Positions 269 through 21,731 of a stretch of 30,908 nt of DNA are shown here, one piece after another. Made by a program: the position numbers and the translations under genes. This stretch comes from Promethearchaeia archaeon. Lineage in GTDB: Archaea > Asgardarchaeota > Lokiarchaeia > Sigyniarchaeales > SOKP01. The stretch's first letter is position 1, and each line of letters starts with the position of its first letter. The stretch spans positions 1 through 30,908 of the forward strand of contig JAHQWG010000029.1 in NCBI GenBank assembly GCA_029856045.1. Direction: 5' to 3'. Below the pieces are notes generated by a model, which saw only the letters and a program-made list of their open reading frames with translations, ran no database searches and was not told the origin of the DNA.

Positions 269-1393
269 TCAATAATATTTTAATATATTATAAACAGTAT
301 CTCTTTGAGCTGGGCGTTTTCCAGCGGATTTAATTATATTGATGATTTCCTCAGGTTTTAAATATTCACCATAGTGGGCTCCTGCGCTTCGAGAAATATT
401 TTCTTCCAATAACGTTCCAGAAAAATCATTTACTCCATAATTTAATGAGATTTGAGCAAACCTTGGTCCTAACTTAACCCACGAACATTGAATGTTATCA
501 ATATAATTATTAAAAAAGATTCTTGCAACGCAAAACAACTTCAAATCATCCATACCATAAGTTGGTTTTAATGGATATTTCCTAATTTTTGAAAGTATTG
601 GATTTTCTTTAATATATGGCAGAAGAACGAATTCTGTTATTCCTTCGGTCTTTTTTTGAATGTTTCTTATTATTTCTAAATGTATCATTCTATCTTCTAA
701 GCTTTCTATATGACCATACATTATTGTAGATGTTGTTGGAATTTCTAATTTATGTGCAGTAGAAATAATTTCAATCCATTGCTCTGTGGTTATTTTTTTA
801 GGGCATATAATTTTTCTTATTTCATCATTTAATATTTCTGCTGCAGTCCCTGGTATTGAGTCCAAGCCAGCTTTTTTTAATTCTTTCAGCGTATCTTCGA
901 GAGTTAAACCATTTAATTGTGTCATATAAAAAATTTCTTGTGGTGAAAAAGCATGTGCATGAATCTCAGGGGCGGTACTTTTTACCACTTTTAAAATATC
1001 TAAATAAAATTGAAAGTCAACTTTTGGATTTAACCCTCCTTGAATGCATACTTCTGTACACTTTTTATCTTTTGCTTCAAGAACTTTTTCTTTAATTTCT
1101 TCAAGTGATAATAGATAAGCTTCTTTATGATTTTTCGATACATTAAATGAACAGAATTTACAGCTACTAGTACATATATTTGTGAAATTAATGTTCCGGT
1201 TAATTACGAAAGTTACAATATTTTCTTTTTTCAGAGAACATAGATAATTTGCAACTAATTGTAGCGCTAAAAAATCATTTCCGGAACATTTTAATAACTC
1301 TAGTCCTTCATTTTTGGTTATTTGCTGGGAATTTAATGCTTTATCGAGAATCCTTTCAATTTTTGAATTACATAATTGTTTTAACTCTACCAT
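269..1393 (-). CDS. cofH: FO synthase subunit 2 (5-amino-6-(D-ribitylamino)uracil-L-tyrosine 4-hydroxyphenyl transferase), radical SAM
   Basis: NRNINFTNICTSSCKFCSF (CxxxCxxC), EVCIQGG, HAFSPQE, SIPGTAAEIL, TSTIMYGHIE, NIQCSWVKLG, EENISRSAGA; adjacent to cofG. Confidence 0.9.
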   Translation of the reverse strand: MVELKQLCNSKIERILDKALNSQQITKNEGLELLKCSGNDFLALQLVANYLCSLKKENIVTFVINRNINFTNICTSSCKFCSFNVSKNHKEAYLLSLEEIKEKVLEAKDKKCTEVCIQGGLNPKVDFQFYLDILKVVKSTAPEIHAHAFSPQEIFYMTQLNGLTLEDTLKELKKAGLDSIPGTAAEILNDEIRKIICPKKITTEQWIEIISTAHKLEIPTTSTIMYGHIESLEDRMIHLEIIRNIQKKTEGITEFVLLPYIKENPILSKIRKYPLKPTYGMDDLKLFCVARIFFNNYIDNIQCSWVKLGPRFAQISLNYGVNDFSGTLLEENISRSAGAHYGEYLKPEEIINIIKSAGKRPAQRDTVYNILKYY

Positions 1394-1407: not shown

Positions 1408-2514
1408 TTATGAGATATTATTACAATAAAACTCTATCACATTATTAATTTGTGAGGATATGAAATTTTTTTTTCTAATAAATTTATCATAGATTGGTAG
1501 TCTCTCTTTCAAATCGAACCCTTCAGCTTTACAAATCTTTTTTAAATGTTCAATTTTTGGCCATGGTTTATAAGGATTTATTTCGTCTCTTGTAAATGGA
1601 GAAATACCTCCAAAATCATCTATTCCAACTTTTAAAAATTGTTTTTCATAACCAGGAATTAAGTTTGGCGGAATCTGAATTTTTATCGAATTCTCTACAA
1701 TTATTTTGGCAATTCCAGTTGTCTTTATAATATCTTTTATACCAATTGGTGTTTTCGGATTATATCTTATATTCGGTTTTGAGACAAAATTTTGTATTAT
1801 TATTTCTTGGATATGTTCATATTCATCATTCAATTCCTTTATAAGAAATAAATCTTTTATCCGATCAATCATATTTTCCCCTATACCTAAAAGAAGACCC
1901 GTAGTAAAAGGTATTTTTAATTTCCCGGCATTTTTAATAAATTCAATCCTTTTATCTGGTTTTTTACCAGGACTTTCATTATGAACCTCACCTTTTTTAA
2001 ATAATCTAGGCTGGGAACTTTCAAGCATAAGTCCCATACTCGCATTATAATCTTTTATTTGTTCTAATTTATCATAACTAAGATATCCTACATTTGTGTG
2101 GGGTAAAAGTTTTTTAGATAATAATAATTTACAAATATATAACAGATAATCGAAAAATCCTTCAAAACCTCTCAATTTTAATCCTTTTTTAACTATTTGG
2201 AACTGATCTGGATGTTCTCCAGATATTATAAGAGCTTCCTTACAATCAAGTTGATGAGCTTTAGTCATTAGTTTTTTAATTTTTTTTAAATCAAATAGCA
2301 CAATAATTTCATTTTGAGCTTTCATCCTATGATTGAAGTAGCAATAAGAGCAATTATTTATGCAATAATTTGAGAGCGGGATAGTGAAATTTTTTGAAAA
2401 TGTTATAATCTTTCTTTCATTTTGTGGCAACTCATTTTTAATTTCCCTTACTTTTTGTATTATTTCTCTTAGAGTCAATTTTTCTAATTGATCTATTGTC
2501 TTTATTAAATTCAC
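1408..2514 (-). CDS. cofG: FO synthase subunit 1 (7,8-didemethyl-8-hydroxy-5-deazariboflavin synthase), radical SAM
   Basis: ITFSKNFTIPLSNYCINNCSYC, LPHTNVG, SMGLMLE, PFTTGLLLGIGE, QIPPNL, DDFGGISP, INP..PWP. Confidence 0.92.
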   Translation of the reverse strand: MNLIKTIDQLEKLTLREIIQKVREIKNELPQNERKIITFSKNFTIPLSNYCINNCSYCYFNHRMKAQNEIIVLFDLKKIKKLMTKAHQLDCKEALIISGEHPDQFQIVKKGLKLRGFEGFFDYLLYICKLLLSKKLLPHTNVGYLSYDKLEQIKDYNASMGLMLESSQPRLFKKGEVHNESPGKKPDKRIEFIKNAGKLKIPFTTGLLLGIGENMIDRIKDLFLIKELNDEYEHIQEIIIQNFVSKPNIRYNPKTPIGIKDIIKTTGIAKIIVENSIKIQIPPNLIPGYEKQFLKVGIDDFGGISPFTRDEINPYKPWPKIEHLKKICKAEGFDLKERLPIYDKFIRKKNFISSQINNVIEFYCNNIS

Positions 2515-2516
2515 AC

Positions 2517-3176
2517 CTATGCCTTAAAGTAATTAAGAATCACATAATTATCTCTTTTCAAAACGTTTTGCAGTTTAAATTTAAAGCCATCAATAATTCT
2601 CTCTGCTCCTCGTCCCTCAACGAGTGAAACAGCGTTTTTCCCACCAACTATTATAGGAGCAATGAAAATTCTAATCTCGTCAACTAAGCATTCTTTTATC
2701 ATACTCCAATTGAGAGCTCCTCCTCCTTCTAGTAAAATTTTTTTAATCCCATGCTGGTATAATTCTTCCATTAATTTTTTTAAATTAACTTGTTTTTCAG
2801 AACCAGTGTTAATAAATCTAATATTTTTCAGTTTTGCCTTTTCTATTTTTGGCCTTAAAGCATGATCTGTTATTGCGATTATTGTGGGATAAGTCTTTAG
2901 TTTATAAGTAAATACCTTTGAAGTTAATGGAATAGAAAAGGAACTGTCAACAATAACCCGAATCAATCTTGTTGGTTCGTAAAATTTTATGTGTAATTTG
3001 GGATCATCTTTTAAGATCGTATTTTTTCCAACCATTACCGCATCACATTCGGTCCTAAGTTTATGAATTAGTTTCCAATCCTCTTCATCAGAAAGTTCAT
3101 TATCACCAGTATATGTGGCAATTTTTCCATCAATACTCATAGCACAACTCAATAAAACATATGGTTTATTTTTCAA
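2517..3176 (-). CDS. arfC: 2,5-diamino-6-(ribosylamino)-4(3H)-pyrimidinone 5'-phosphate reductase (stand-alone RibD-C/Rib7 type)
   Basis: PYVLLSCAMSIDGKIAT, HKLR..CDAVMVGKNTILKDDP, LLEGGGALNWS, IAPIIVGG; no N-terminal deaminase domain. Confidence 0.9.
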   Translation of the reverse strand: MKNKPYVLLSCAMSIDGKIATYTGDNELSDEEDWKLIHKLRTECDAVMVGKNTILKDDPKLHIKFYEPTRLIRVIVDSSFSIPLTSKVFTYKLKTYPTIIAITDHALRPKIEKAKLKNIRFINTGSEKQVNLKKLMEELYQHGIKKILLEGGGALNWSMIKECLVDEIRIFIAPIIVGGKNAVSLVEGRGAERIIDGFKFKLQNVLKRDNYVILNYFKA

Positions 3177-4314
3177 AAACTACTCTCCCTTTAATATATA
3201 CTTTCTTAATATTAAAACTAGTCGTTCTATGAACACTTAAATCTATTAAATTTTTATGGTTTATTGAAAAAAAGTTTGAATCATCAAGATTTATTAAAAA
3301 AAAATCAGCATATTTTCCTACTGAAATTGATCCTATCTCCTTATCTAATCTAAAATTTTTTGCGGCGTTAATTGTTACCATTTTTAGTAAATCTCTCGAT
3401 TTTATGACATAACTAGGATTCCTTATTTTTGAAACTTTATATAAATATCTCATTTCTTCAAATAAATCTGGTCTAATCGCCATTAAATTATCAGTACCAA
3501 TAGAAATTTCTAATTTCATCTCTAACATTTCTTTTAATGGAGGTATTCCCATCCCAAAATAACCATTACTTTGAGGGCAAATAACAATTTTTTTATTATG
3601 TTTCTTTATTTTTAACAAGTCTTGTTTAGTAAAATGTGTCCCATGAACGAAAACATCAATAAAATCATCAGATAAAATGTTTTCGAGTATAATATTCTCC
3701 CTTTTAACCTCAGATATATGAGTTGCAATAATTTTATTAGTAGGTGAATTTTTATTTAGAATATTTTTGATGAAATCTCCATCAATTTTTGAACTTGATG
3801 GAAAACCAATACCATCTGCGAGGTTATAAATTTCAGATATATCATCATTTTCATGCTGTCGGCCTAGTATTTTGAATTTAATTGGGGAATCTTTTAATGC
3901 CTTTTTTAATAACTTAATGCCTTTAATTCCAAATTCTCGAAAATCAATAAATAATGTTATTCCATTAGATAACATTTCATTAACTGCTTCTCTAATACCT
4001 TTAATTATAAGATTTTCATCAACCTCTCTTAATAGTTTGTATTTTAGACTATCAGGACCACTTACAACATCATTAATTGGCTTATTTAAACCAAATTCTT
4101 TCCCAATACTGTCTGCAATATGTATATGACTGTTTATAAAACCAGGAAGTAAAATTGTCTTACCTTTACCTAAAGGGTTTCTATTATTGATCTTCTCTGA
4201 TTCATTTATTCCTTTTATTATGCCATTTCTTGATATTTCGATAATAACATTCTTTTTTAAATCTAAATCTTCACCTACTAAACAAAAATCAGAAAATATC
4301 TTTTTAATTACCAT
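3166..4314 (-). CDS. Metal-dependent amidohydrolase, nucleobase-deaminase type; substrate unknown
   Basis: PGFINSHIHIADS (HxH), THISE (HxxE), VHGTH, CPQSN, GTDN, TINAAK, GSISVGKYAD; overlaps the arfC start by 11 bp. Confidence 0.85.
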   Translation of the reverse strand: MVIKKIFSDFCLVGEDLDLKKNVIIEISRNGIIKGINESEKINNRNPLGKGKTILLPGFINSHIHIADSIGKEFGLNKPINDVVSGPDSLKYKLLREVDENLIIKGIREAVNEMLSNGITLFIDFREFGIKGIKLLKKALKDSPIKFKILGRQHENDDISEIYNLADGIGFPSSSKIDGDFIKNILNKNSPTNKIIATHISEVKRENIILENILSDDFIDVFVHGTHFTKQDLLKIKKHNKKIVICPQSNGYFGMGIPPLKEMLEMKLEISIGTDNLMAIRPDLFEEMRYLYKVSKIRNPSYVIKSRDLLKMVTINAAKNFRLDKEIGSISVGKYADFFLINLDDSNFFSINHKNLIDLSVHRTTSFNIKKVYIKGRVVFEK

Positions 4315-4339
4315 ATTTAATGTTATTAAATTATTTTTA

Positions 4340-4348
4340 ATTATAAAT
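4340..4348. promoter_or_regulatory. Candidate bidirectional TATA box between the divergent amidohydrolase and mptA genes
   Basis: ATTATAAAT reads TATA-like on both strands and lies about 26-34 nt from both start codons (4314 and 4374). The AT-rich background weakens the call. Confidence 0.35.
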
Positions 4349-4373
4349 ATTTAAAAGGAAAATAAAAAATTAA

Positions 4374-5339
4374 GTGATAATTATTTCTAATGAATTTCGA
4401 AAAGATTTACAAGATTCCTATTCTCCTTTAGACATAGCTATTGATAAAGTTGGCATAATTGGACTCAGAAAAAAAATAGACATAGTAAGAGGCAATTACA
4501 AATACTCATTCTACCCAAAAATATCAGCTTTAATTAGTCTCCCAGCAAAACAGAGAGGTATTCATATGAGTAGAACTTCTGAAACAATTGAAGAAGTAAT
4601 TAATGAAGTTATATTTAAGCCCACTCCAACTATAGAAGTAGTCGCTGATCGGATTATAAAAAAATTATTAAAAAAGCATAAATACACTTTAAAAGTTCAT
4701 GTGGAGCTTGAGGGCGATATTGTTATTCAAGTAAGAGAAACTGAGAAAAATAATGTCCAAAAATCTTATTATATAAAAACTGTAGCTAATGGAATAAAAC
4801 AAGATAATGGAGAAGTTAAATATAAATATTTCATTGGAGTTAGTGCAGTTGGTCTTACTGTATGCCCCTGTAGTATGGAGATGAGCAGAGAATTTGTAGA
4901 AGATTTTGTTAAAGCAAGAAAAGATATCAAGATTCCAGAGAATGATTTAAAAAATTTACTAAACATCCTTCCTGTTTCATCACACAATCAAAGAGCGAAA
5001 GGAACAATTACGGTTGAGATTGATGATGTAGATACTAACTCTATAGATATAATTGATTTGATAAATGTAATTGAAAACTCTATGAGTGGTAAGATAAGTT
5101 CTGTCTTGAAAAGACCTGAAGAAGCGGAATTGGTTCGAGTTGCTCATCTTAAACCATTATTTGCAGAAGATGCCGTAAGGGAAATGGCTAAAAATTTTAT
5201 TAAAAAGGATTTTCTAAATTTAAAGGATGAATTTCGAGTAAAATTTGAGATTACAAGTTTTGAAAGCATTCACAGCTATGATGTTTTCGCTGAACTGAAT
5301 ACAACAATAGGAGAATTAAAAAAAACATTGAAAATCTGA
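4374..5339 (+). CDS. mptA: GTP cyclohydrolase MptA (FolE2/GCH-IB family)
   Basis: DLQD, IDKVGI, QRGIHMSR, GLTVCPCS, SHNQRA, LKRPEE, PLFAEDAVR, FESIHSYD. Confidence 0.9.
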   Translation: MIIISNEFRKDLQDSYSPLDIAIDKVGIIGLRKKIDIVRGNYKYSFYPKISALISLPAKQRGIHMSRTSETIEEVINEVIFKPTPTIEVVADRIIKKLLKKHKYTLKVHVELEGDIVIQVRETEKNNVQKSYYIKTVANGIKQDNGEVKYKYFIGVSAVGLTVCPCSMEMSREFVEDFVKARKDIKIPENDLKNLLNILPVSSHNQRAKGTITVEIDDVDTNSIDIIDLINVIENSMSGKISSVLKRPEEAELVRVAHLKPLFAEDAVREMAKNFIKKDFLNLKDEFRVKFEITSFESIHSYDVFAELNTTIGELKKTLKI

Positions 5340-6443: not shown

Positions 6444-7493
6444 ATGACATCAATTGCTATTGAAGGGGATTTCATTGAAACCAAAAAAAAGGGTTTGATC
6501 TTTGATGTTAAAGGGTTGCTTCATCCTAAAGATAAAATTATTTGCTTTTTAAGATATTATCCCGATTCAAATGGAGATAGATTAAGAAATAATACAAGAT
6601 ATTCAAAAATATATGATTTAGAACAGAGATATGAGTTCCTGAGAAAAAATTTTCCTGATTTTGTTTTTTATTCTAATCAAATTGATATGGAATTGCAAGG
6701 AGTAAAAATGAAAGAAATTAAACAGATTTTTAAACCTAAAAATTGCTATAAGAACTTAAAAAAATCTGATAATTTAACGCAGAATCAACGAAAAGCTCTC
6801 GATTTTTGTGATATACTTATAAATAATACTCAAATAACAAGTGACGACATTGGTATCACTGGTTCCATTATGGTTGGGCTAGATGGGGAGAATTCCGACA
6901 TAGATGTGATTATATATGGAACTGATATCAGTAAAAAGATACAAGAAGAATTGAAAAAAATTTATTTAAATGAAAAGATTCCGGTTCGAAAATATAACTT
7001 AGAAGAATTCAAAAAACATTACGAATTTAGGGCGGGCAGTTCTGGCATTTCTTTTGAAAATTTTATGAGAAGCGAAAAGCATAAATTACACCAAGGTAAA
7101 TTTCAAGAAACTGATTTCTTTATTAGATACATTAAGAGTCCTCAAGATTGGCAGGGAAAATTTTCTGATTATATTTATAAAAATTATGGCAGAATAAAAC
7201 TCAAAGCTGAAATTTTGGATTCTTCTGATTCAATTTTTACACCTTGTTCCTATAAAATTGAGCCTTTAAGATTATTAGAATTGATACCTTTTTCGAAAGA
7301 AATTAAGTTAAATCAAATTCAAGAAATAAGTTCATTTAGAGGTCGGTTTTGTGAGCAAGCTATAGATCAAGAGAAGGTATATATAGAGGGAAAACTCGAG
7401 AAAGTATTATCTAAGAAGAAAAATGAATATTTTAGAATTATTTTGGGTGAATATAAGGAAGATAAAATGTTGTGTTGCAATAACACAAACTGA
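6444..7493 (+). CDS. Archaeal predicted nucleotidyltransferase (Pol-beta superfamily, COG1665-like)
   Basis: GITGSIMVG....SDIDVIIYG (GS plus DxD); N-terminal EGDF..IFDVKGLLHP..FLRY; C-terminal OB-like region with SSFRGRFCEQA..EGKLE. Confidence 0.75.
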   Translation: MTSIAIEGDFIETKKKGLIFDVKGLLHPKDKIICFLRYYPDSNGDRLRNNTRYSKIYDLEQRYEFLRKNFPDFVFYSNQIDMELQGVKMKEIKQIFKPKNCYKNLKKSDNLTQNQRKALDFCDILINNTQITSDDIGITGSIMVGLDGENSDIDVIIYGTDISKKIQEELKKIYLNEKIPVRKYNLEEFKKHYEFRAGSSGISFENFMRSEKHKLHQGKFQETDFFIRYIKSPQDWQGKFSDYIYKNYGRIKLKAEILDSSDSIFTPCSYKIEPLRLLELIPFSKEIKLNQIQEISSFRGRFCEQAIDQEKVYIEGKLEKVLSKKKNEYFRIILGEYKEDKMLCCNNTN

Positions 7494-7602: not shown

Positions 7603-8673
7603 TTGAAGTATATTATGGCATTAAATTACTCCCCAGAATTTTATTTGTATCTCATAGGAGCCATATTTTGCTCAATAGGAACCATCATAATTGGATTGAA
7701 TATCCTTTCAAAAAAAAATAAGACCCACTTTTACTATTTTTTTTCAATATTAAGTATTTCCATTTTCTTCTTTTTTACAAGTTTCTCATTTCTCTTCTTA
7801 AATTTAGACCTTTATCGAGCGAGTTGTTTCGCAGGTACAATTAGTACTATCTTTTTATTTTTATTTATTGACTTTACATCTCGCGAATCAGTAAGTCCTA
7901 TTAATACTGCATTATTAAGTATATTGAGTGGGATGGTACTTATCTTAGTTTGGCAAGAGGATTCCATTACATACTATGAAGGATTCGGATATCCATCTAT
8001 TAAAACATCGGGAATATTTATGTTTGTTGCAAATTTTGTTTTATTGTTAAATGCGTTGTTCTATTTTTATTGGGCTTTAAGAATCTCTATAAAAGCACCC
8101 AAAATGTTAAGAAAATCATCATTAACCTTTTTTTGTGGGACGCTACTTCTACTAAGTGGTTATTTTATTTGGAGTGCTAAATATCTATTAACGGCTCCAA
8201 TCGGTATATTTTTTACTGGAATTGGCATGCTAATTTCTATATTTTCATGGGTAAAAGAACCAAAAATCCTTTATATATTACCATTTAAAGTCTATAGATT
8301 AATCGTTCTCCACGGGAAATCGGGTGTTCCATTGTTTAATTACAATTGGGTGGAAACTAAGGTGGATGAATCTATTTACTCAGGTCTGCTACATGCACTA
8401 AATAATGCAATAAAAATTCTAAAAAGGGGCGAAATAAAATATATTTTATTAACAGAAGGAGTTTTGATTCTTAAAAAATCCAAAAATGTTTTAGTTGGAT
8501 TAATTACTGATAAAACCTCAAAATTTTTAACTAATTGTATCAATAATTTCACAGATTCATTTGAGGAGAAATACAATTCAATTTTAAATAATTGGAACTG
8601 TCAGACTGATCAATTTAATTCTGCAAAGGACTTAATTGAAAAATCTTTTGCGAATGTTCCATCTCGGTTATAA
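7603..8673 (+). CDS. Seven-transmembrane protein with a C-terminal longin-like domain (start may be ATG 7615)
   Basis: Seven hydrophobic segments in aa ~11-218, then PFKVYRLIVLHGKSGVPLFNYNW...IYSGLLHALNN...GEIKYILLTEGVLIL..., a longin-like beta-beta-alpha-beta-beta-beta-alpha pattern. Confidence 0.7.
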   Translation: MKYIMALNYSPEFYLYLIGAIFCSIGTIIIGLNILSKKNKTHFYYFFSILSISIFFFFTSFSFLFLNLDLYRASCFAGTISTIFLFLFIDFTSRESVSPINTALLSILSGMVLILVWQEDSITYYEGFGYPSIKTSGIFMFVANFVLLLNALFYFYWALRISIKAPKMLRKSSLTFFCGTLLLLSGYFIWSAKYLLTAPIGIFFTGIGMLISIFSWVKEPKILYILPFKVYRLIVLHGKSGVPLFNYNWVETKVDESIYSGLLHALNNAIKILKRGEIKYILLTEGVLILKKSKNVLVGLITDKTSKFLTNCINNFTDSFEEKYNSILNNWNCQTDQFNSAKDLIEKSFANVPSRL

Positions 8674-12868: not shown

Positions 12869-15091
12869 GTGAGTTTAATGGAGTTTGTTGAATTTAGTGG
12901 TGAAAGAATTGAATTAAAGGATGGAAAATTAGATTTATCTGCCAAAGGTATTAAAAATATTTTAGATATTAAGGGATTGGATACACTAACAAGATTAAAG
13001 ATACTTGATCTTAGATTTAATCAAATTTCGGAGATTTACGGGTTAGAGATATTTACGAATCTAGAACAATTATATTTAAGCGGAAATGAAATTTCTAAAA
13101 TTAAAGGTCTTAAAACTTTATTAAATCTAAAAAGTTTAAATTTATCCTTGAATAAAATTTCAGAAATAAGTGGTTTAGACACTCTTCTAAATTTGCAAGA
13201 ACTAAATCTAAATAGAAATCAAATTTCTGAGATTAAAGGGTTACACACACCTCAAAAATTAAAACACCTAATCCTTAGTGATAATCAGATTTCAAAAATT
13301 CAAGGATTTGAAAAGTTAATAAAATTAAAAACTTTAAATCTTGGTTCTAATCAAATTTCTGAGATTGAAGGACTTGAGAAATTTATTGAATTAGAAGAAT
13401 TGGATCTCAGTTCTAATAAAATTTCAGAGATAAAAGGACTTGAAATGCTAATAAATATAAAAAAATTATATCTATGGGGTAATCAAATTTCTTTGATTAA
13501 AGGACTTGAAAACCTCATTAGTTTGGAGGATCTAGATCTGAGTTCCAATAAGATCATAGAGATTAAAGGTTTATATCAATTCAAGAATTTAAAAAAATTA
13601 ATATTACATGATAATCATCTTTTTAAAATTACGGGACTTAATTGGCTTATTAATTTGGAAGAATTGGATCTTAGTTCTAATCAAATTGCCGAAATAATAG
13701 GGATTAGATCTCTTCTATTTCTAAAAAAATTAATTCTTTACGATAATCAAATTACTGAGATTAAAGAATTTGATGAACTAACTATGTTAATAGAATTAGA
13801 TTTAAGTTCTAATCAAATTCCTGAAATTAAAGGGCTTAAATCGCTCCAGAATTTGCAAATTCTAAATTTAAATAATAATAAAATTCGTGAGATAAAGGAA
13901 TTTGAAACACTTATGAATTTATGGAGGTTAGAATTGAAATATAATCAAATCTCTGAAATTAAATCATTAAATACGCTTATAAATTTAGAAGTACTTGACC
14001 TTGATTTTAATCAAATTAAAAAAATTAAAGACCTTAATTTGCTCTCAAAACTTAGATATTTAAGTCTTGCAGGAAACCAAATCCCTATGATTGAAGGGTT
14101 AGAAACACTAATGAATTTGGATTATTTAAATTTAAGAGAAAATAGTATTTCTGAAATTTCTGGGCTCGAATCCCTTTCAAAGTTAAAAAAATTATATCTT
14201 AGTGATAATCAAATTTCCGAAATAAAAGGACTTGATTCTCTTACTGAATTATGGATATTAGATCTTAAATATAATCAAATTTCAGAGATTAAAGGTTTAG
14301 AAACCCTCAAAAAATTAGAGAATCTCACTCTTAGAAATAATAGAATTATTGATATAAGAGGGTTTGAAAACCTTGAGAATTTAAGAGAATTGATATTATC
14401 TAACAATAATATACCTCCAAACACATTAGAAACTTTAGGGGGTATAGATAATATGGGATATGTTAATAATCCCCAAAAATTTGTGGAATTTTGTCAATCA
14501 AAAATTAGACAAGAAAAGATAAGAGAGTTAGTGGAAGTAAAAAAAGAGATTATTATTTATAAAGATAAGGAAATTGAAGTCTCTGAAAAGAAATTAGATT
14601 TATCAAATAAAGGTATCCATGATATAACGGAGATTAAAGGACTTGAAAAACTCACAAAGTTAATATTTTTGCGTCTAGATGGAAATGAAATTTCGGAGAT
14701 TAAAGGACTTGAGACTTTTACTAATTTAAAGTATTTAAGACTTGATAAAAATAAAATTTCCGAAATAAAAGGGTTAGATAATCTCATCAATTTGAACTGG
14801 CTCTTTTTAGATAATAACCAAATTACAGAGATAAAAGGACTTGAAAAACTAATAAATTTACAAAAATTAGAACTTAGTTATAATAAAATTGTGGAAATTA
14901 AAGGATTAGAGACACTTATAAATCTGGAAAATCTAAATTTAACCAACAATCAAATTACTGAAATCAAAGGGATAGATACACTTAAAAATTTAATCTTGTT
15001 ATATCTTAAGAATAATAATATCGATGAATATCAAATTAATAAGTTTAAAAAGAAAACAATTGAACGAAAAAATTTCTATTTTCGGATATAA
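12869..15091 (+). CDS. Leucine-rich repeat protein (SDS22-like 22-aa repeats) with two capped modules
   Basis: Repeats of consensus xxLxLxxNxISEIKGLExLxxL: 22 in module 1 and 6 in module 2, each preceded by an LDLSxKGIxxIxxIKGL cap. Confidence 0.95.
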   Translation: MSLMEFVEFSGERIELKDGKLDLSAKGIKNILDIKGLDTLTRLKILDLRFNQISEIYGLEIFTNLEQLYLSGNEISKIKGLKTLLNLKSLNLSLNKISEISGLDTLLNLQELNLNRNQISEIKGLHTPQKLKHLILSDNQISKIQGFEKLIKLKTLNLGSNQISEIEGLEKFIELEELDLSSNKISEIKGLEMLINIKKLYLWGNQISLIKGLENLISLEDLDLSSNKIIEIKGLYQFKNLKKLILHDNHLFKITGLNWLINLEELDLSSNQIAEIIGIRSLLFLKKLILYDNQITEIKEFDELTMLIELDLSSNQIPEIKGLKSLQNLQILNLNNNKIREIKEFETLMNLWRLELKYNQISEIKSLNTLINLEVLDLDFNQIKKIKDLNLLSKLRYLSLAGNQIPMIEGLETLMNLDYLNLRENSISEISGLESLSKLKKLYLSDNQISEIKGLDSLTELWILDLKYNQISEIKGLETLKKLENLTLRNNRIIDIRGFENLENLRELILSNNNIPPNTLETLGGIDNMGYVNNPQKFVEFCQSKIRQEKIRELVEVKKEIIIYKDKEIEVSEKKLDLSNKGIHDITEIKGLEKLTKLIFLRLDGNEISEIKGLETFTNLKYLRLDKNKISEIKGLDNLINLNWLFLDNNQITEIKGLEKLINLQKLELSYNKIVEIKGLETLINLENLNLTNNQITEIKGIDTLKNLILLYLKNNNIDEYQINKFKKKTIERKNFYFRI
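12998..14992 (+). repeat. 66-bp periodic coding repeat (LRR units), interrupted at about 14414-14662 by the C-cap, linker and second N-cap
   Basis: Recurrent aatcaaatttc(t/a/g)gagattaaagg(a)cttga-like motifs at 66-bp spacing. Confidence 0.85.
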
Positions 15092-15214: not shown

Positions 15215-16519
15215 ATGAAACCTTTTAACGTTGATCTGCATATCCATAGCCCTCATTCTATTTCAGTTTCGAAAAATTTGAATTTAGATACAATGGTGGA
15301 AACTTGTAAAAAAAAAGGAATAGATATTATTGCTACTGGAGATATTCTTCAACCAACTTGGTTAAAATATATGGAAAATAACCTTCAAAAAGAGAAAGAT
15401 GGAATTTTTTTATATAAAAATGTTAATTTTATTTTGCAAACAGAGATAGAAGATAAGGAGAATATTCATGAGGTTGTTTTGCTTCCAAATTTTGAAGCTG
15501 CCAGAGAACTTCAAAAAAAATTAAAGCCTTTTTCGAAAAATCTTATGAATGAATGGGGAGGTCGTCCTAGAGTTAATTTAAGTCCCCCTGATCTTGTTGA
15601 TGAAGTTGATGCTGCCGGAGGTTTAATTGGCCCTGCTCATGCCTTTACGCCATTTAAAGCGATTTTCAGGCAAAATAAGTATGCTAATCTAGAAGAATGT
15701 TATCAAGATTCTCTAAAAAAGGTCTCATTTTTAGAATTGGGATTATCTGCAGATACTTATATTGCAGATCGAATGAAAGGTCTTAGAGATATAAGTTTTT
15801 TAAGCAATAGTGATGCTCATTCGGAGGGTCCAACCTCACTTGGAAGAGAATTTAATAGATTTGAAATTGAAAAGCCAAATTTCGAAGAAATTGATCTAGC
15901 CATAAAAAGACAAAGAGGGCGTAAAATTATTCTAAATGTTGGATTAGATCCAAGATTAGGAAAATATTATAATATGTTTTGTAATAAGTGTAGAAGAAGG
16001 ATAATTTTTAAAGAAGACAAAACTAGATCTTTTACTCTTCTCAATAATTACAAAATAGATGCTAATTATATTACATATTTCGCAAGAAATCCAATAATAG
16101 CAAGGAAAAATTATCAAAAAGAAGTCGATAAAGGAAAAGTAATTTGTCCTGCATGTAAAAATGAATTAAAAAAAAATTATAAGATAAAATTGGGTGTATT
16201 TGAACGAATTGAAATGATCTCAGACTATGAGCAGCCAAGACATCCATCTCATCGGCCACCCTATATTGATATAATTCCTTTAGTAGAGATCATAAGAAAA
16301 GTACTAAATATCAAAAGCTCAAAATCTAAAACTGTAGAGAAAATTTATGATGATTTTATAGATAAACTTGGGACTGAGTTTTCAATCTTAATCGATCTAC
16401 CTATTAAAAAGATAAGTGAAGTTAATAAAGAAATTGCGAAAGTAATTAGCTCTTTTAGAACAGGGAATATTGAAATATTAACTGGAGGAGGCGGAGTATT
16501 CGGTGAAATTAAAATTTAA
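15215..16519 (+). CDS. endoQ: Endonuclease Q / TIGR00375-type PHP-domain nuclease with a Zn ribbon
   Basis: DLHIHSPHS..VS, ATGD, QTEIED, GGRP, GPAHAFTPF, ELGLSADT, SNSDAHS, LGREFNRF, GLDPRLGKYY, CxxC...CxxC, GVFERI, RPPY..IIPL.EII, GGGGVFG. Confidence 0.85.
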   Translation: MKPFNVDLHIHSPHSISVSKNLNLDTMVETCKKKGIDIIATGDILQPTWLKYMENNLQKEKDGIFLYKNVNFILQTEIEDKENIHEVVLLPNFEAARELQKKLKPFSKNLMNEWGGRPRVNLSPPDLVDEVDAAGGLIGPAHAFTPFKAIFRQNKYANLEECYQDSLKKVSFLELGLSADTYIADRMKGLRDISFLSNSDAHSEGPTSLGREFNRFEIEKPNFEEIDLAIKRQRGRKIILNVGLDPRLGKYYNMFCNKCRRRIIFKEDKTRSFTLLNNYKIDANYITYFARNPIIARKNYQKEVDKGKVICPACKNELKKNYKIKLGVFERIEMISDYEQPRHPSHRPPYIDIIPLVEIIRKVLNIKSSKSKTVEKIYDDFIDKLGTEFSILIDLPIKKISEVNKEIAKVISSFRTGNIEILTGGGGVFGEIKI

Positions 16520-20975: not shown

Positions 20976-21518
20976 TTAAAAATCCATTTTTGCATGTTTT
21001 TTCTTACTTTCTTCAAGAAGGATTTGAGCTAAAACTTCGAATGCTTTTTCTACGTTTTGACCAGTCTTTGAACTTAACTCGACAAACGATCTCATGTTGT
21101 ATCTCTTTGCAGCATTTATACCATCCTCTCTTTTCACAGATCGATATTCAGATAAATCAGCTTTTGAACCAACCAACATTAAAGGAACATCTCCTGCATT
21201 TTCTCGTACAATATAACTCCAGTCAGGTAAATGTGATAGACTAGCAGGATGTGTTATGTCATATAGAATAAATGCCCCACTAGCTCCTTTAGCGTATTGT
21301 GGGAGTAGAAATCTGAATCTTTCTTCACCCCCAAAATCCCAAAGTTGAAGTTTTATCCGTTCCCCGTTAAAAAAAACTGATTTAGAAAAGAAATCCACTC
21401 CAATAGTGAGCCTTAGATCCTCTACAAAAAATCCTGAGATATATCTTAATGTTAGTGAAGTTTTTCCGACCGATGCATCCCCTAGCATAAGGACTTTAAA
21501 TGTATAGTCTGATTCCAT
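20976..21518 (-). CDS. Rab-like small GTPase (Ras superfamily); start ATG 21518 (MESDYTFK) preferred
   Basis: G1 GDASVGKTS, G2 TIGVDF, G3 WDFGGEERF, G4 GSKAD, G5 ELSSK; matches to the RabF motifs. Confidence 0.93.
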   Translation of the reverse strand: MESDYTFKVLMLGDASVGKTSLTLRYISGFFVEDLRLTIGVDFFSKSVFFNGERIKLQLWDFGGEERFRFLLPQYAKGASGAFILYDITHPASLSHLPDWSYIVRENAGDVPLMLVGSKADLSEYRSVKREDGINAAKRYNMRSFVELSSKTGQNVEKAFEVLAQILLEESKKKHAKMDF

Positions 21519-21731
21519 TAATCTTTCCGTATTTTTTTTAAACAATGCAAATATAATCAATAATGAGAAAATTATTTTGATTATATATTCTTTATACATT
21601 ATTTATATTGCTTATCGAGTTAATAAATTTTTTTTATTATTAGAATAATGATATTGATGTTCTATATTTCTGACAAATTTTTATTCCCTTTTGAATTCAA
21701 ATGTTCTTATTCATTCTTTCTTAGAGTTTAA

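Follow-up and report, generated by a model that had tools for sequence, protein, structure and literature searches.

The window analysed here is a stretch of 30,908 nucleotides from Promethearchaeia archaeon (GCA_029856045.1, contig JAHQWG010000029.1), which is contig C28 of a 3.34-Mb genome with 28% G+C; its close relatives are Asgard archaea, with homologues that carry the names Promethearchaeota, Loki-, Thor- and Hodarchaeota. Near one end of the window lies a minus-strand operon whose first gene encodes a deaminase-type amidohydrolase, called AH below, and which continues with genes for a pyrimidine reductase (arfC) and for both subunits of FO synthase (cofG and cofH). Judging from sequence and genome context, we think it likely that AH is the predicted archaeal pyrimidine deaminase, a mononuclear-metal amidohydrolase of the COG0402 clade acting on 2,5-diamino-6-ribitylamino-4(3H)-pyrimidinone 5'-phosphate. 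The features of the locus are the following.

3166 to 4314, minus strand: AH, deaminase-type amidohydrolase of 382 amino acids, ATG start, first gene of the operon; Pfam Amidohydro_1, best NCBIfam match NF005552.
2517 to 3176, minus strand: arfC, 2,5-diamino-6-ribosylamino-4(3H)-pyrimidinone 5'-phosphate reductase, RibD_C only, TTG start; TIGR01508, 193.3 bits (cut-off 186.45).
1408 to 2514, minus strand: cofG, radical S-adenosylmethionine (radical-SAM) subunit of FO synthase; NF004884, 395 bits (cut-off 209); TIGR03550, 368 bits (cut-off 213).
269 to 1393, minus strand: cofH, radical-SAM FO synthase subunit using 5-amino-6-ribitylamino-uracil and tyrosine; NF005609, 464.7 bits (cut-off 426).
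4315 to 4373, no strand: AT-rich divergent intergenic region of 59 bp with a TATA-like TTTAAATATTTATAA about 25-40 nt upstream of the AH ATG; sequence read directly.
4374 to 5339, plus strand: mptA, Fe-dependent GTP cyclohydrolase of the IB/MptA type, divergent neighbour; TIGR00294, 245.7 bits (cut-off 220).

The stop of AH and the TTG start of arfC overlap by 11 nt, and the junction sequence has a GGGAGAG purine run just upstream of the TTG; the gaps further along the operon are 2 nt (arfC-cofG) and 14 nt (cofG-cofH). TIGR01508, which the arfC product passes, is the archaeal reductase equivalog, and the same product aligns to bacterial RibD (TIGR00326) over positions 139-333 only, that is, without the deaminase domain. 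The products of cofG and cofH also pass their own cut-offs, the latter including TIGR03551 (453.5 bits, cut-off 374), and the MqnC and MqnE models stay below theirs. An earlier note on this DNA had placed AH as the first gene of an operon, overlapping a reductase-only arfC and followed by cofG and then cofH, and this description proved accurate. On the other side of AH, mptA is read in the divergent orientation at a spacing of 59 bp, and the sequence of this interval makes it a likely shared promoter region of both genes.

AH belongs to the amidohydrolase superfamily and, within it, to the COG0402-type (subtype III) deaminase clade, as its residues, Pfam match, structural model and PDB neighbours agree. 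The hallmarks of this clade are a (beta/alpha)8 barrel and its active-site residues: HxH following strand 1, the His and Glu of HxxE on strand 5, a His on strand 6 and an Asp on strand 8. Amidohydro_1 covers residues 54-379 of AH (E 1e-45), and all four deaminase-type motifs that the earlier note had claimed (HxH, HxxE, His and GTDN) were found, at H63-I-H65, H199-I-S-E202, H224 and G273-T-D275-N276. When 136 members of the family are compared, drawn from four lineages of archaea (Asgard archaea, Nitrososphaeria, Bathyarchaeia and Methanobacteria), H63, H65, D68, G118, G168, H199, E202, H224, C246, G273, D275, N276, T314 and R363 are invariant (136/136), and K91, R126, E127 and R152 are nearly so. 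The family keeps intact the catalytic set of amino-heterocycle deaminases and has conserved basic residues of its own; R363 is unmatched in the PDB alignments with AtzA and OLEI01672, the two that were compared.

PDB sequence matches of AH are weak and partial. The AlphaFold (AF2) model, built on 39 relatives, is confident, with a predicted local distance difference test score (pLDDT) of 92 and a predicted template-modelling score (pTM) of 0.93. Its top 50 PDB structural neighbours, at 13-21% identity, are all COG0402-type deaminases or chlorohydrolases; they include deaminases of 5'-methylthioadenosine (MTA), S-adenosylhomocysteine (SAH) and adenosine, AtzA/TrzN, TM0936, guanine deaminases, the isocytosine deaminase Vcz and HutF, and there is no solved structure of AH's own family among these 50.

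The family to which AH belongs is best captured by NF005552 (PRK07213, 'chlorohydrolase'), which matches residues 11-375 at 257.5 bits, the match running from position 9 to position 378 of the 382 in the profile. As the second-best NCBIfam family reaches 106.6 bits, NF005552 is the sole strong match. The models for DadD (NF005557, 86.1 bits, cut-off 522), MtaD (NF012037, 46.8 bits, cut-off 779), guanine deaminase (TIGR02967, 86.7 bits, cut-off 375.4), aminofutalosine deaminase (NF006269, 79.9 bits, cut-off 320) and HutF all fall in the range of 47-107 bits and align to the C-terminal half of AH only. A grouping with DadD, MtaD or guanine deaminases, which the earlier note had named among the outcomes that would speak against its proposal, was therefore not observed. 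Protein P0263, a riboflavin-operon member of the family that is 28% identical to AH, passes NF005552 at 307.5 bits, and the window AH reads as part of a sister Asgard clade within the wider NF005552 family.

In the amidohydrolase superfamily, a single divalent metal is coordinated by the HxH pair together with the His of strand 5 and the Asp of strand 8, and it activates a water molecule; the Glu of HxxE acts as proton shuttle, with help from the His of strand 6. With a site of this kind, guanine, isocytosine, 8-oxoguanine and pterin deaminases remove the 2-amino group from a 2-amino-4-oxo-pyrimidine ring by hydrolysis, and the product of ArfC carries exactly the ring on which such deaminases act. 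If AH works like the guanine, isocytosine and cytosine deaminases of its superfamily, its residues H63, H65, H199 and D275 would hold the metal and its water, E202 would shuttle a proton to the ring nitrogen and H224 would assist. We propose a pathway in which ArfC would reduce 2,5-diamino-6-ribosylamino-4(3H)-pyrimidinone 5'-phosphate to its ribityl form, and AH would then remove by hydrolysis the exocyclic amino group at position 2 of this isocytosine-like ring, yielding 5-amino-6-ribitylamino-2,4(1H,3H)-pyrimidinedione 5'-phosphate. Some phosphatase would remove the phosphate, and CofH/CofG would join the dephosphorylated product with tyrosine to give FO, the F420 chromophore. The product of AH would very probably be the pyrimidine precursor of this chromophore and, in other archaea, also that of vitamin B2.

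Of this proposal, the analysis shows the fold, the complete set of catalytic residues, the layout of the operon, the gene fusions and the tight genomic coupling to ArfC; the substrate, its phosphorylation state and the order of reduction and deamination are inferred. A deamination step appears to be required in the window genome because no RibD-type deaminase domain was found there (the sole TIGR00326 match is ArfC itself, at positions 139-333), and yet CofG, CofH and CofD are retained. Reduction is placed first because work with M. jannaschii extracts and enzymes puts it before deamination in archaea (refs 7-9, as summarised in PMC5397151).

The association of AH with arfC recurs in other Asgard genomes. 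Among 31 relatives, both genes are present in 19 and both absent in 12, and at all 12 relative loci that were fetched arfC and then cofG come directly after AH. We also sampled the Asgard archaea evenly, taking 121 genomes of at least 85% completeness, and among their matches a clean score gap separates family members (at least 283 bits, open reading frames (ORFs) of about 385-430 amino acids) from paralogues (440-510 amino acids, at most about 225 bits). In this sample, arfC is immediately downstream and on the same strand in 54/54 family-bearing genomes, AH without arfC occurs in none, and 65 genomes have neither; as the genomes are related to one another, they do not count as independent samples. 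Of the five genomes in the genus of the window, three (G001, G002 and G003) lack AH, arfC and cofH together, and G001 and G002 retain mptA. The AH-arfC module is gained and lost as a unit, and the FO module is patchy even within one genus.

The partners of this module vary. The genes next to it are cofG-cofH in the window and in family f1, and ribE-ribB in G020. In G021, a relative of the same order (L123, G021:C163, 2477-7418), RibA is divergent from AH-cofG-cofH, and arfC is convergent at the far end. Two minor observations concern the same genes. Genome G009, which is 99% complete, has a ribB-ribC-ribH-arfA-arfB operon (L127, G009:C3, 5256-8490), and neither arfC nor AH was found anywhere in the genome, which points either to a gap in the assembly or to another reductase/deaminase pair. 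In one Asgard genus, the otherwise full-length family matches at G293:C19:8870-10030 and G187:C43:124419-125579 each contain a single in-frame TGA.

Outside the Asgard archaea, members of the family are found in riboflavin operons. The P0263 locus (L025) is an overlapping operon, ribB-ribH-arfA-AH-arfC-arfB, with ribE divergent. About 70 of the 80 named loci, which come from species-representative genomes, have the arrangement ribE-ribB-ribH-arfA-AH-arfC and belong to Nitrosopumilus, Nitrososphaera, Nitrosocaldus and related groups (Nitrososphaeria), and the Bathyarchaeia layouts are ribH-arfA-AH-arfC-arfB and arfA-AH-cofG-cofH-arfB. Neither a radical-SAM gene nor mptA is present in the Nitrososphaeria riboflavin operons carrying AH. 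Riboflavin operons with AH already hold all the known archaeal enzymes of the branch (ArfA, ArfB, ArfC, RibB, RibH and RibE); the deaminase and the phosphatase are the sole steps left without an assigned enzyme. At four Methanobacteriaceae loci (L091, L094, L095 and L103) the AH family gene is not clustered with rib or cof genes.

Two gene fusions were also detected. P0200 (636 amino acids; L137:5001-6911) consists of an N-terminal AH and a RibD_C domain and is followed by cofG-cofH. It corresponds to the first two genes of the window operon joined into one, and its domains stand in the order known from bacterial RibD, deaminase before reductase, but with a non-homologous deaminase domain. In P0219 (542 amino acids; L138:5001-6629), ArfB (Creatininase) is fused to AH.

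The cut-off of NF005552 was passed in 151/151 sampled Methanobacteriota genomes, a sample rich in Methanobacteria, with Methanothermobacter (MTH_994-type) and Methanobrevibacter proteins as top scorers. Among 14 control genomes, NF005552 gave matches at E<=1e-30 in 4/4 archaea, M. jannaschii and H. volcanii included, and in 0/10 bacteria; 2/4 archaeal controls (a count without names) pass its cut-off. Full-length RibD (TIGR00326) scored above its cut-off in 10/14 controls (again a count without names), presumably the bacteria. The earlier note had suggested looking for clustering or co-occurrence with arfC, rib and cof genes and for absence of the family where full-length RibD exists. Both turned out as it expected, the former in the 54/54 Asgard adjacency and in the rib and cof neighbours seen in several archaeal phyla, the latter in the control genomes. 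Its idea that AH fills the deaminase gap between ArfC and CofH is supported by this comparative evidence, namely co-occurrence, operons, fusions and distribution.

A candidate archaeal pyrimidine deaminase is not a new idea. According to PMC5397151 (2017), which still treats it as a prediction, one was put forward under the name 'PyrD' on the basis of clustering and co-occurrence (Osterman, Overbeek and Rodionov 2010, cited there). MJ0699 and HVO_2483 are named as the candidate in PMC8305020 (2021), where experiments are called for, and the SEED role name 'Pyrimidine deaminase archaeal predicted' appears in PMC6629838. 'PyrD' (MJ0699/HVO_2483) and the AH family have the same predicted job and evidence of the same kind: chromosomal clustering, co-occurrence with riboflavin genes and a distribution confined to archaea. 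The AH family clusters with riboflavin/FO genes and co-occurs with the archaeal pathway, as 'PyrD' does, although the Asgard copy is below the NF005552 cut-off and lies in an FO-only operon. The window AH is a putative orthologue of MJ0699, a reading supported indirectly by the NF005552 matches at E<=1e-30 in the M. jannaschii and H. volcanii control genomes. The deaminase reading is thus a well-supported rediscovery, with the window AH as a sub-threshold Asgard member of a known, predicted family. The earlier note had stated that the archaeal deaminase was not assigned, which holds at the bench but not in print, where what is probably the same family had already been put forward as 'PyrD' (PMC5397151, PMC8305020).

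Several known proteins are useful for comparison. MTH_994 of Methanothermobacter thermautotrophicus (UniProt O27075, 'Putative aminohydrolase MTH_994') is in the NF005552 family and has the same invariant residue set as AH, but it differs in that AH is under the cut-off and that the methanobacterial genes viewed are not clustered with rib or cof genes. The N-terminal deaminase domain of bacterial RibD and the yeast/fungal Rib2 serve the pathway step predicted for AH, Rib2 also with the same predicted substrate after reduction; however, they have a cytidine-deaminase fold, whereas AH is an unrelated (beta/alpha)8 amidohydrolase barrel and so falls outside that group. Guanine deaminase, isocytosine deaminase Vcz and 8-oxoguanine deaminase share with AH the fold, the HxH/HxxE/H/D site and the predicted chemistry of 2-amino hydrolysis, yet they are only 13-17% identical to it in structural alignments, they exceed AH in length by about 40-70 residues, and most of them do not align by sequence to the N-terminal half of AH. 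The nearest solved structures, 4GBD, 4F0R and 1P1M (TM-score normalised by query 0.82-0.86), represent DadD (MJ1541-type), MtaD and TM0936 in the same superfamily clade, but AH scores far under the cut-offs of these families and its gene is tied to arfC.

Some of our results weigh against AH being the pyrimidine deaminase. AH misses the curated NF005552 equivalog cut-off (257.5 against 294 bits) and is only 28-35% identical to members located in riboflavin operons, and because of this a shift of specificity in the Asgard clade is possible. Two of the 121 Asgard genomes (G255 and G258) carry arfC without the AH family, and our literature search found no enzyme assay of any family member. Finally, RibA, ArfA, ArfB and FolE were not found in the window genome, for which marker genes indicate 100% completeness. 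With no recognisable maker of ArfC's substrate, the proposed pathway has a gap in this genome.

Queries taken from same-family relatives for the missing pathway genes likewise gave no match in the window genome, nor were RibB, RibH, RibC and RibE found in it. The genome does encode CofD (C27:44317-45222), a CTP-dependent riboflavin kinase (C41:97523-97900, within a 236-amino-acid ORF, long enough for an RbkR-type helix-turn-helix fusion) and S components of the energy-coupling factor (ECF) type (C15:145868-146341), and this combination suggests riboflavin salvage together with de novo F420 synthesis. To judge by its gene content, the organism appears to be auxotrophic for riboflavin while retaining FO/F420 synthesis. 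Since the rest of the riboflavin pathway was not found in the genome, the operon would serve FO/F420 only.

The only recognisable GTP cyclohydrolase in the window genome is MptA (a single PF02649 match). At least 13 of the 19 operon-bearing relatives also lack ArfA and RibA, and MptA is present in every one of these; three operon-bearing genomes without MptA have ArfA or RibA. The mptA gene adjoins AH in 9/12 same-family loci and occurs also in genomes without the operon. Downstream of cofH in the relatives (L129-L136), in convergent orientation, there is a dihydropteroate synthase (DHPS)-like gene with Pterin_bind and PterinBD-DUF4346 domains in 7/7 and DUF1464 in 5/7, and in G004 (L129, G004:C5, 3750-6965) a flavoprotein gene also stands in this cluster. 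The contig of the window ends 268 bp past cofH, and the pterin-type genes seen there in relatives fall outside the window.

MptA was considered as a dedicated supplier of ArfC's substrate. This idea is weakened, as mptA persists without the operon and its adjacency to AH fits a pterin/FO gene cluster; we assign a low probability to MptA being the supplier. The window genome and at least 12 related Asgard genomes, in which FO/F420 synthesis would do without any known GTP cyclohydrolase II or III and without a deformylase, may have a new entry route to the deazaflavin pathway, in which MptA would supply the diaminopyrimidine nucleotide, AH would have an extra hydrolytic role or a new cyclohydrolase would act, but we regard such a route as rather unlikely. 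The M. acetivorans control genome gave no match for RibA, ArfA and ArfB either.

The pyrimidine deaminase reading has to be weighed against several alternatives, the closest of which concerns the order of reactions. AH might deaminate the ribosyl compound before reduction by ArfC, as in bacteria, or it might act on the dephosphorylated ribityl compound. Since AH precedes arfC in all 54 Asgard loci and is N-terminal in the P0200 fusion, like the deaminase in RibD, the gene arrangement agrees with the bacterial order; gene order, however, is weak evidence on reaction order, and the M. jannaschii work mentioned above (refs 7-9, via PMC5397151) puts reduction first. We consider this order unlikely, and yet it is still a live sub-variant.

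Another idea, which we find very unlikely, is that in a lineage devoid of ArfA, ArfB and RibA, AH performs some other or additional hydrolytic step, such as deformylation or the opening of a GTP-derived intermediate, for example one coming from MptA. The lack of RibA, ArfA, ArfB and FolE in a complete genome would fit this, as would the relatives described above that lack ArfA and RibA and all have MptA, and so would G021, where RibA occupies the divergent position of mptA. On the other hand, G007 and G010 have AH-arfC-cofG-cofH in addition to a rib operon with ArfA; the presence of ArfB was confirmed for G007, as it was for G009, a genome without the AH-arfC operon. The AHs of G007 and G010, at 48% identity to the window AH, are no more divergent from it than those of ArfA-less genomes (43-51%). 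Elsewhere, family members are co-operonic or fused with ArfA or ArfB, and for this reason an ArfB-like deformylase or an ArfA-like cyclohydrolase was rejected as the function of the family. Moreover, HxxE is a hallmark of deaminases, genomes without the operon still have MptA, and the adjacency of mptA is accounted for by the pterin gene cluster.

Two further possibilities assume a deaminase with a different substrate. A DadD-like enzyme would deaminate 5'-deoxyadenosine (or SAH/MTA) and clear the radical-SAM by-product of CofG and CofH. AH does lie beside the genes of two radical-SAM enzymes, the genome has no other deaminase of the COG0402 type (its other amidohydrolases are HutI and an Xaa-Pro-dipeptidase-like protein), no second paralogue of the DadD/MtaD type was found in the window genome, and the top structural neighbours include MTA, SAH and adenosine deaminases. 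The DadD and MtaD models, however, reach 86 and 47 bits against cut-offs of 522 and 779, and the riboflavin operons of Nitrososphaeria hold the AH family without any radical-SAM gene. The distribution of AH tracks arfC and not radical-SAM content, as operon-less relatives still have radical-SAM genes, and Asgard genomes without arfC have separate paralogues of 440-510 amino acids. On the family scores and the riboflavin operons without radical-SAM genes this candidate was rejected, and we hold it to be highly improbable.

We give practically no credence to the remaining reading, in which AH is a deaminase of pterin or another amino-heterocycle tied to mptA and methanopterin genes, or an aminofutalosine deaminase working with an MqnE-like enzyme. 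It could draw on the divergent mptA kept in 9/12 same-family loci, on the pterin-pathway genes downstream of cofH in 7/7 relatives and on the homology of CofH to both MqnC and MqnE. Nevertheless, mptA and AH do not co-vary: G007, G010 and G029 have AH without mptA, G001, G002, G011, G023, G024 and G028 have mptA without AH, and the thaumarchaeal operons have no mptA, so the mptA-linked pterin deaminase was discarded. The aminofutalosine route was discarded as well, since CofH and CofG score above the cut-offs for CofH and CofG, whereas the cut-offs of the models for MqnC, MqnE and aminofutalosine deaminase (80 bits against 320) are not reached. The three alternatives that the earlier note had listed beside its own proposal, a 5'-deoxyadenosine deaminase, a pterin deaminase and an ArfB-like deformylase, are all contradicted by operons that hold ArfA and ArfB and contain neither a radical-SAM gene nor mptA.

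Deamination of the pyrimidine is among the last steps of archaeal riboflavin/F420 synthesis without an experimentally assigned enzyme, the phosphatase being another, and a candidate for it has been in print since 2010. What the Asgard data add to the pyrimidine deaminase reading of AH is a set of arguments independent of riboflavin operons: the AH-ArfC pair is kept with CofG and CofH where the rest of riboflavin synthesis is lost, it is gained and lost as a unit, and a fusion of AH with the reductase mimics bacterial RibD. If the reading is true, thousands of proteins annotated as 'amidohydrolase family protein' or 'chlorohydrolase' could be renamed. How Asgard archaea begin the pathway, given the missing GTP cyclohydrolase, is a separate question.

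The rest of the window contains archaeal ribosomal genes as well as eukaryote-like genes typical of Asgard archaea, namely those for a 740-amino-acid leucine-rich-repeat protein (12869-15091) and a small GTPase of the Ras/Roc family (20976-21599). The ORFs at 6444-7493 (349 amino acids), 7603-8673 (356 amino acids) and 15215-16519 (434 amino acids) have no convincing Pfam or NCBIfam family, the sole hint being a weak NTP_transf_2 match of the first.

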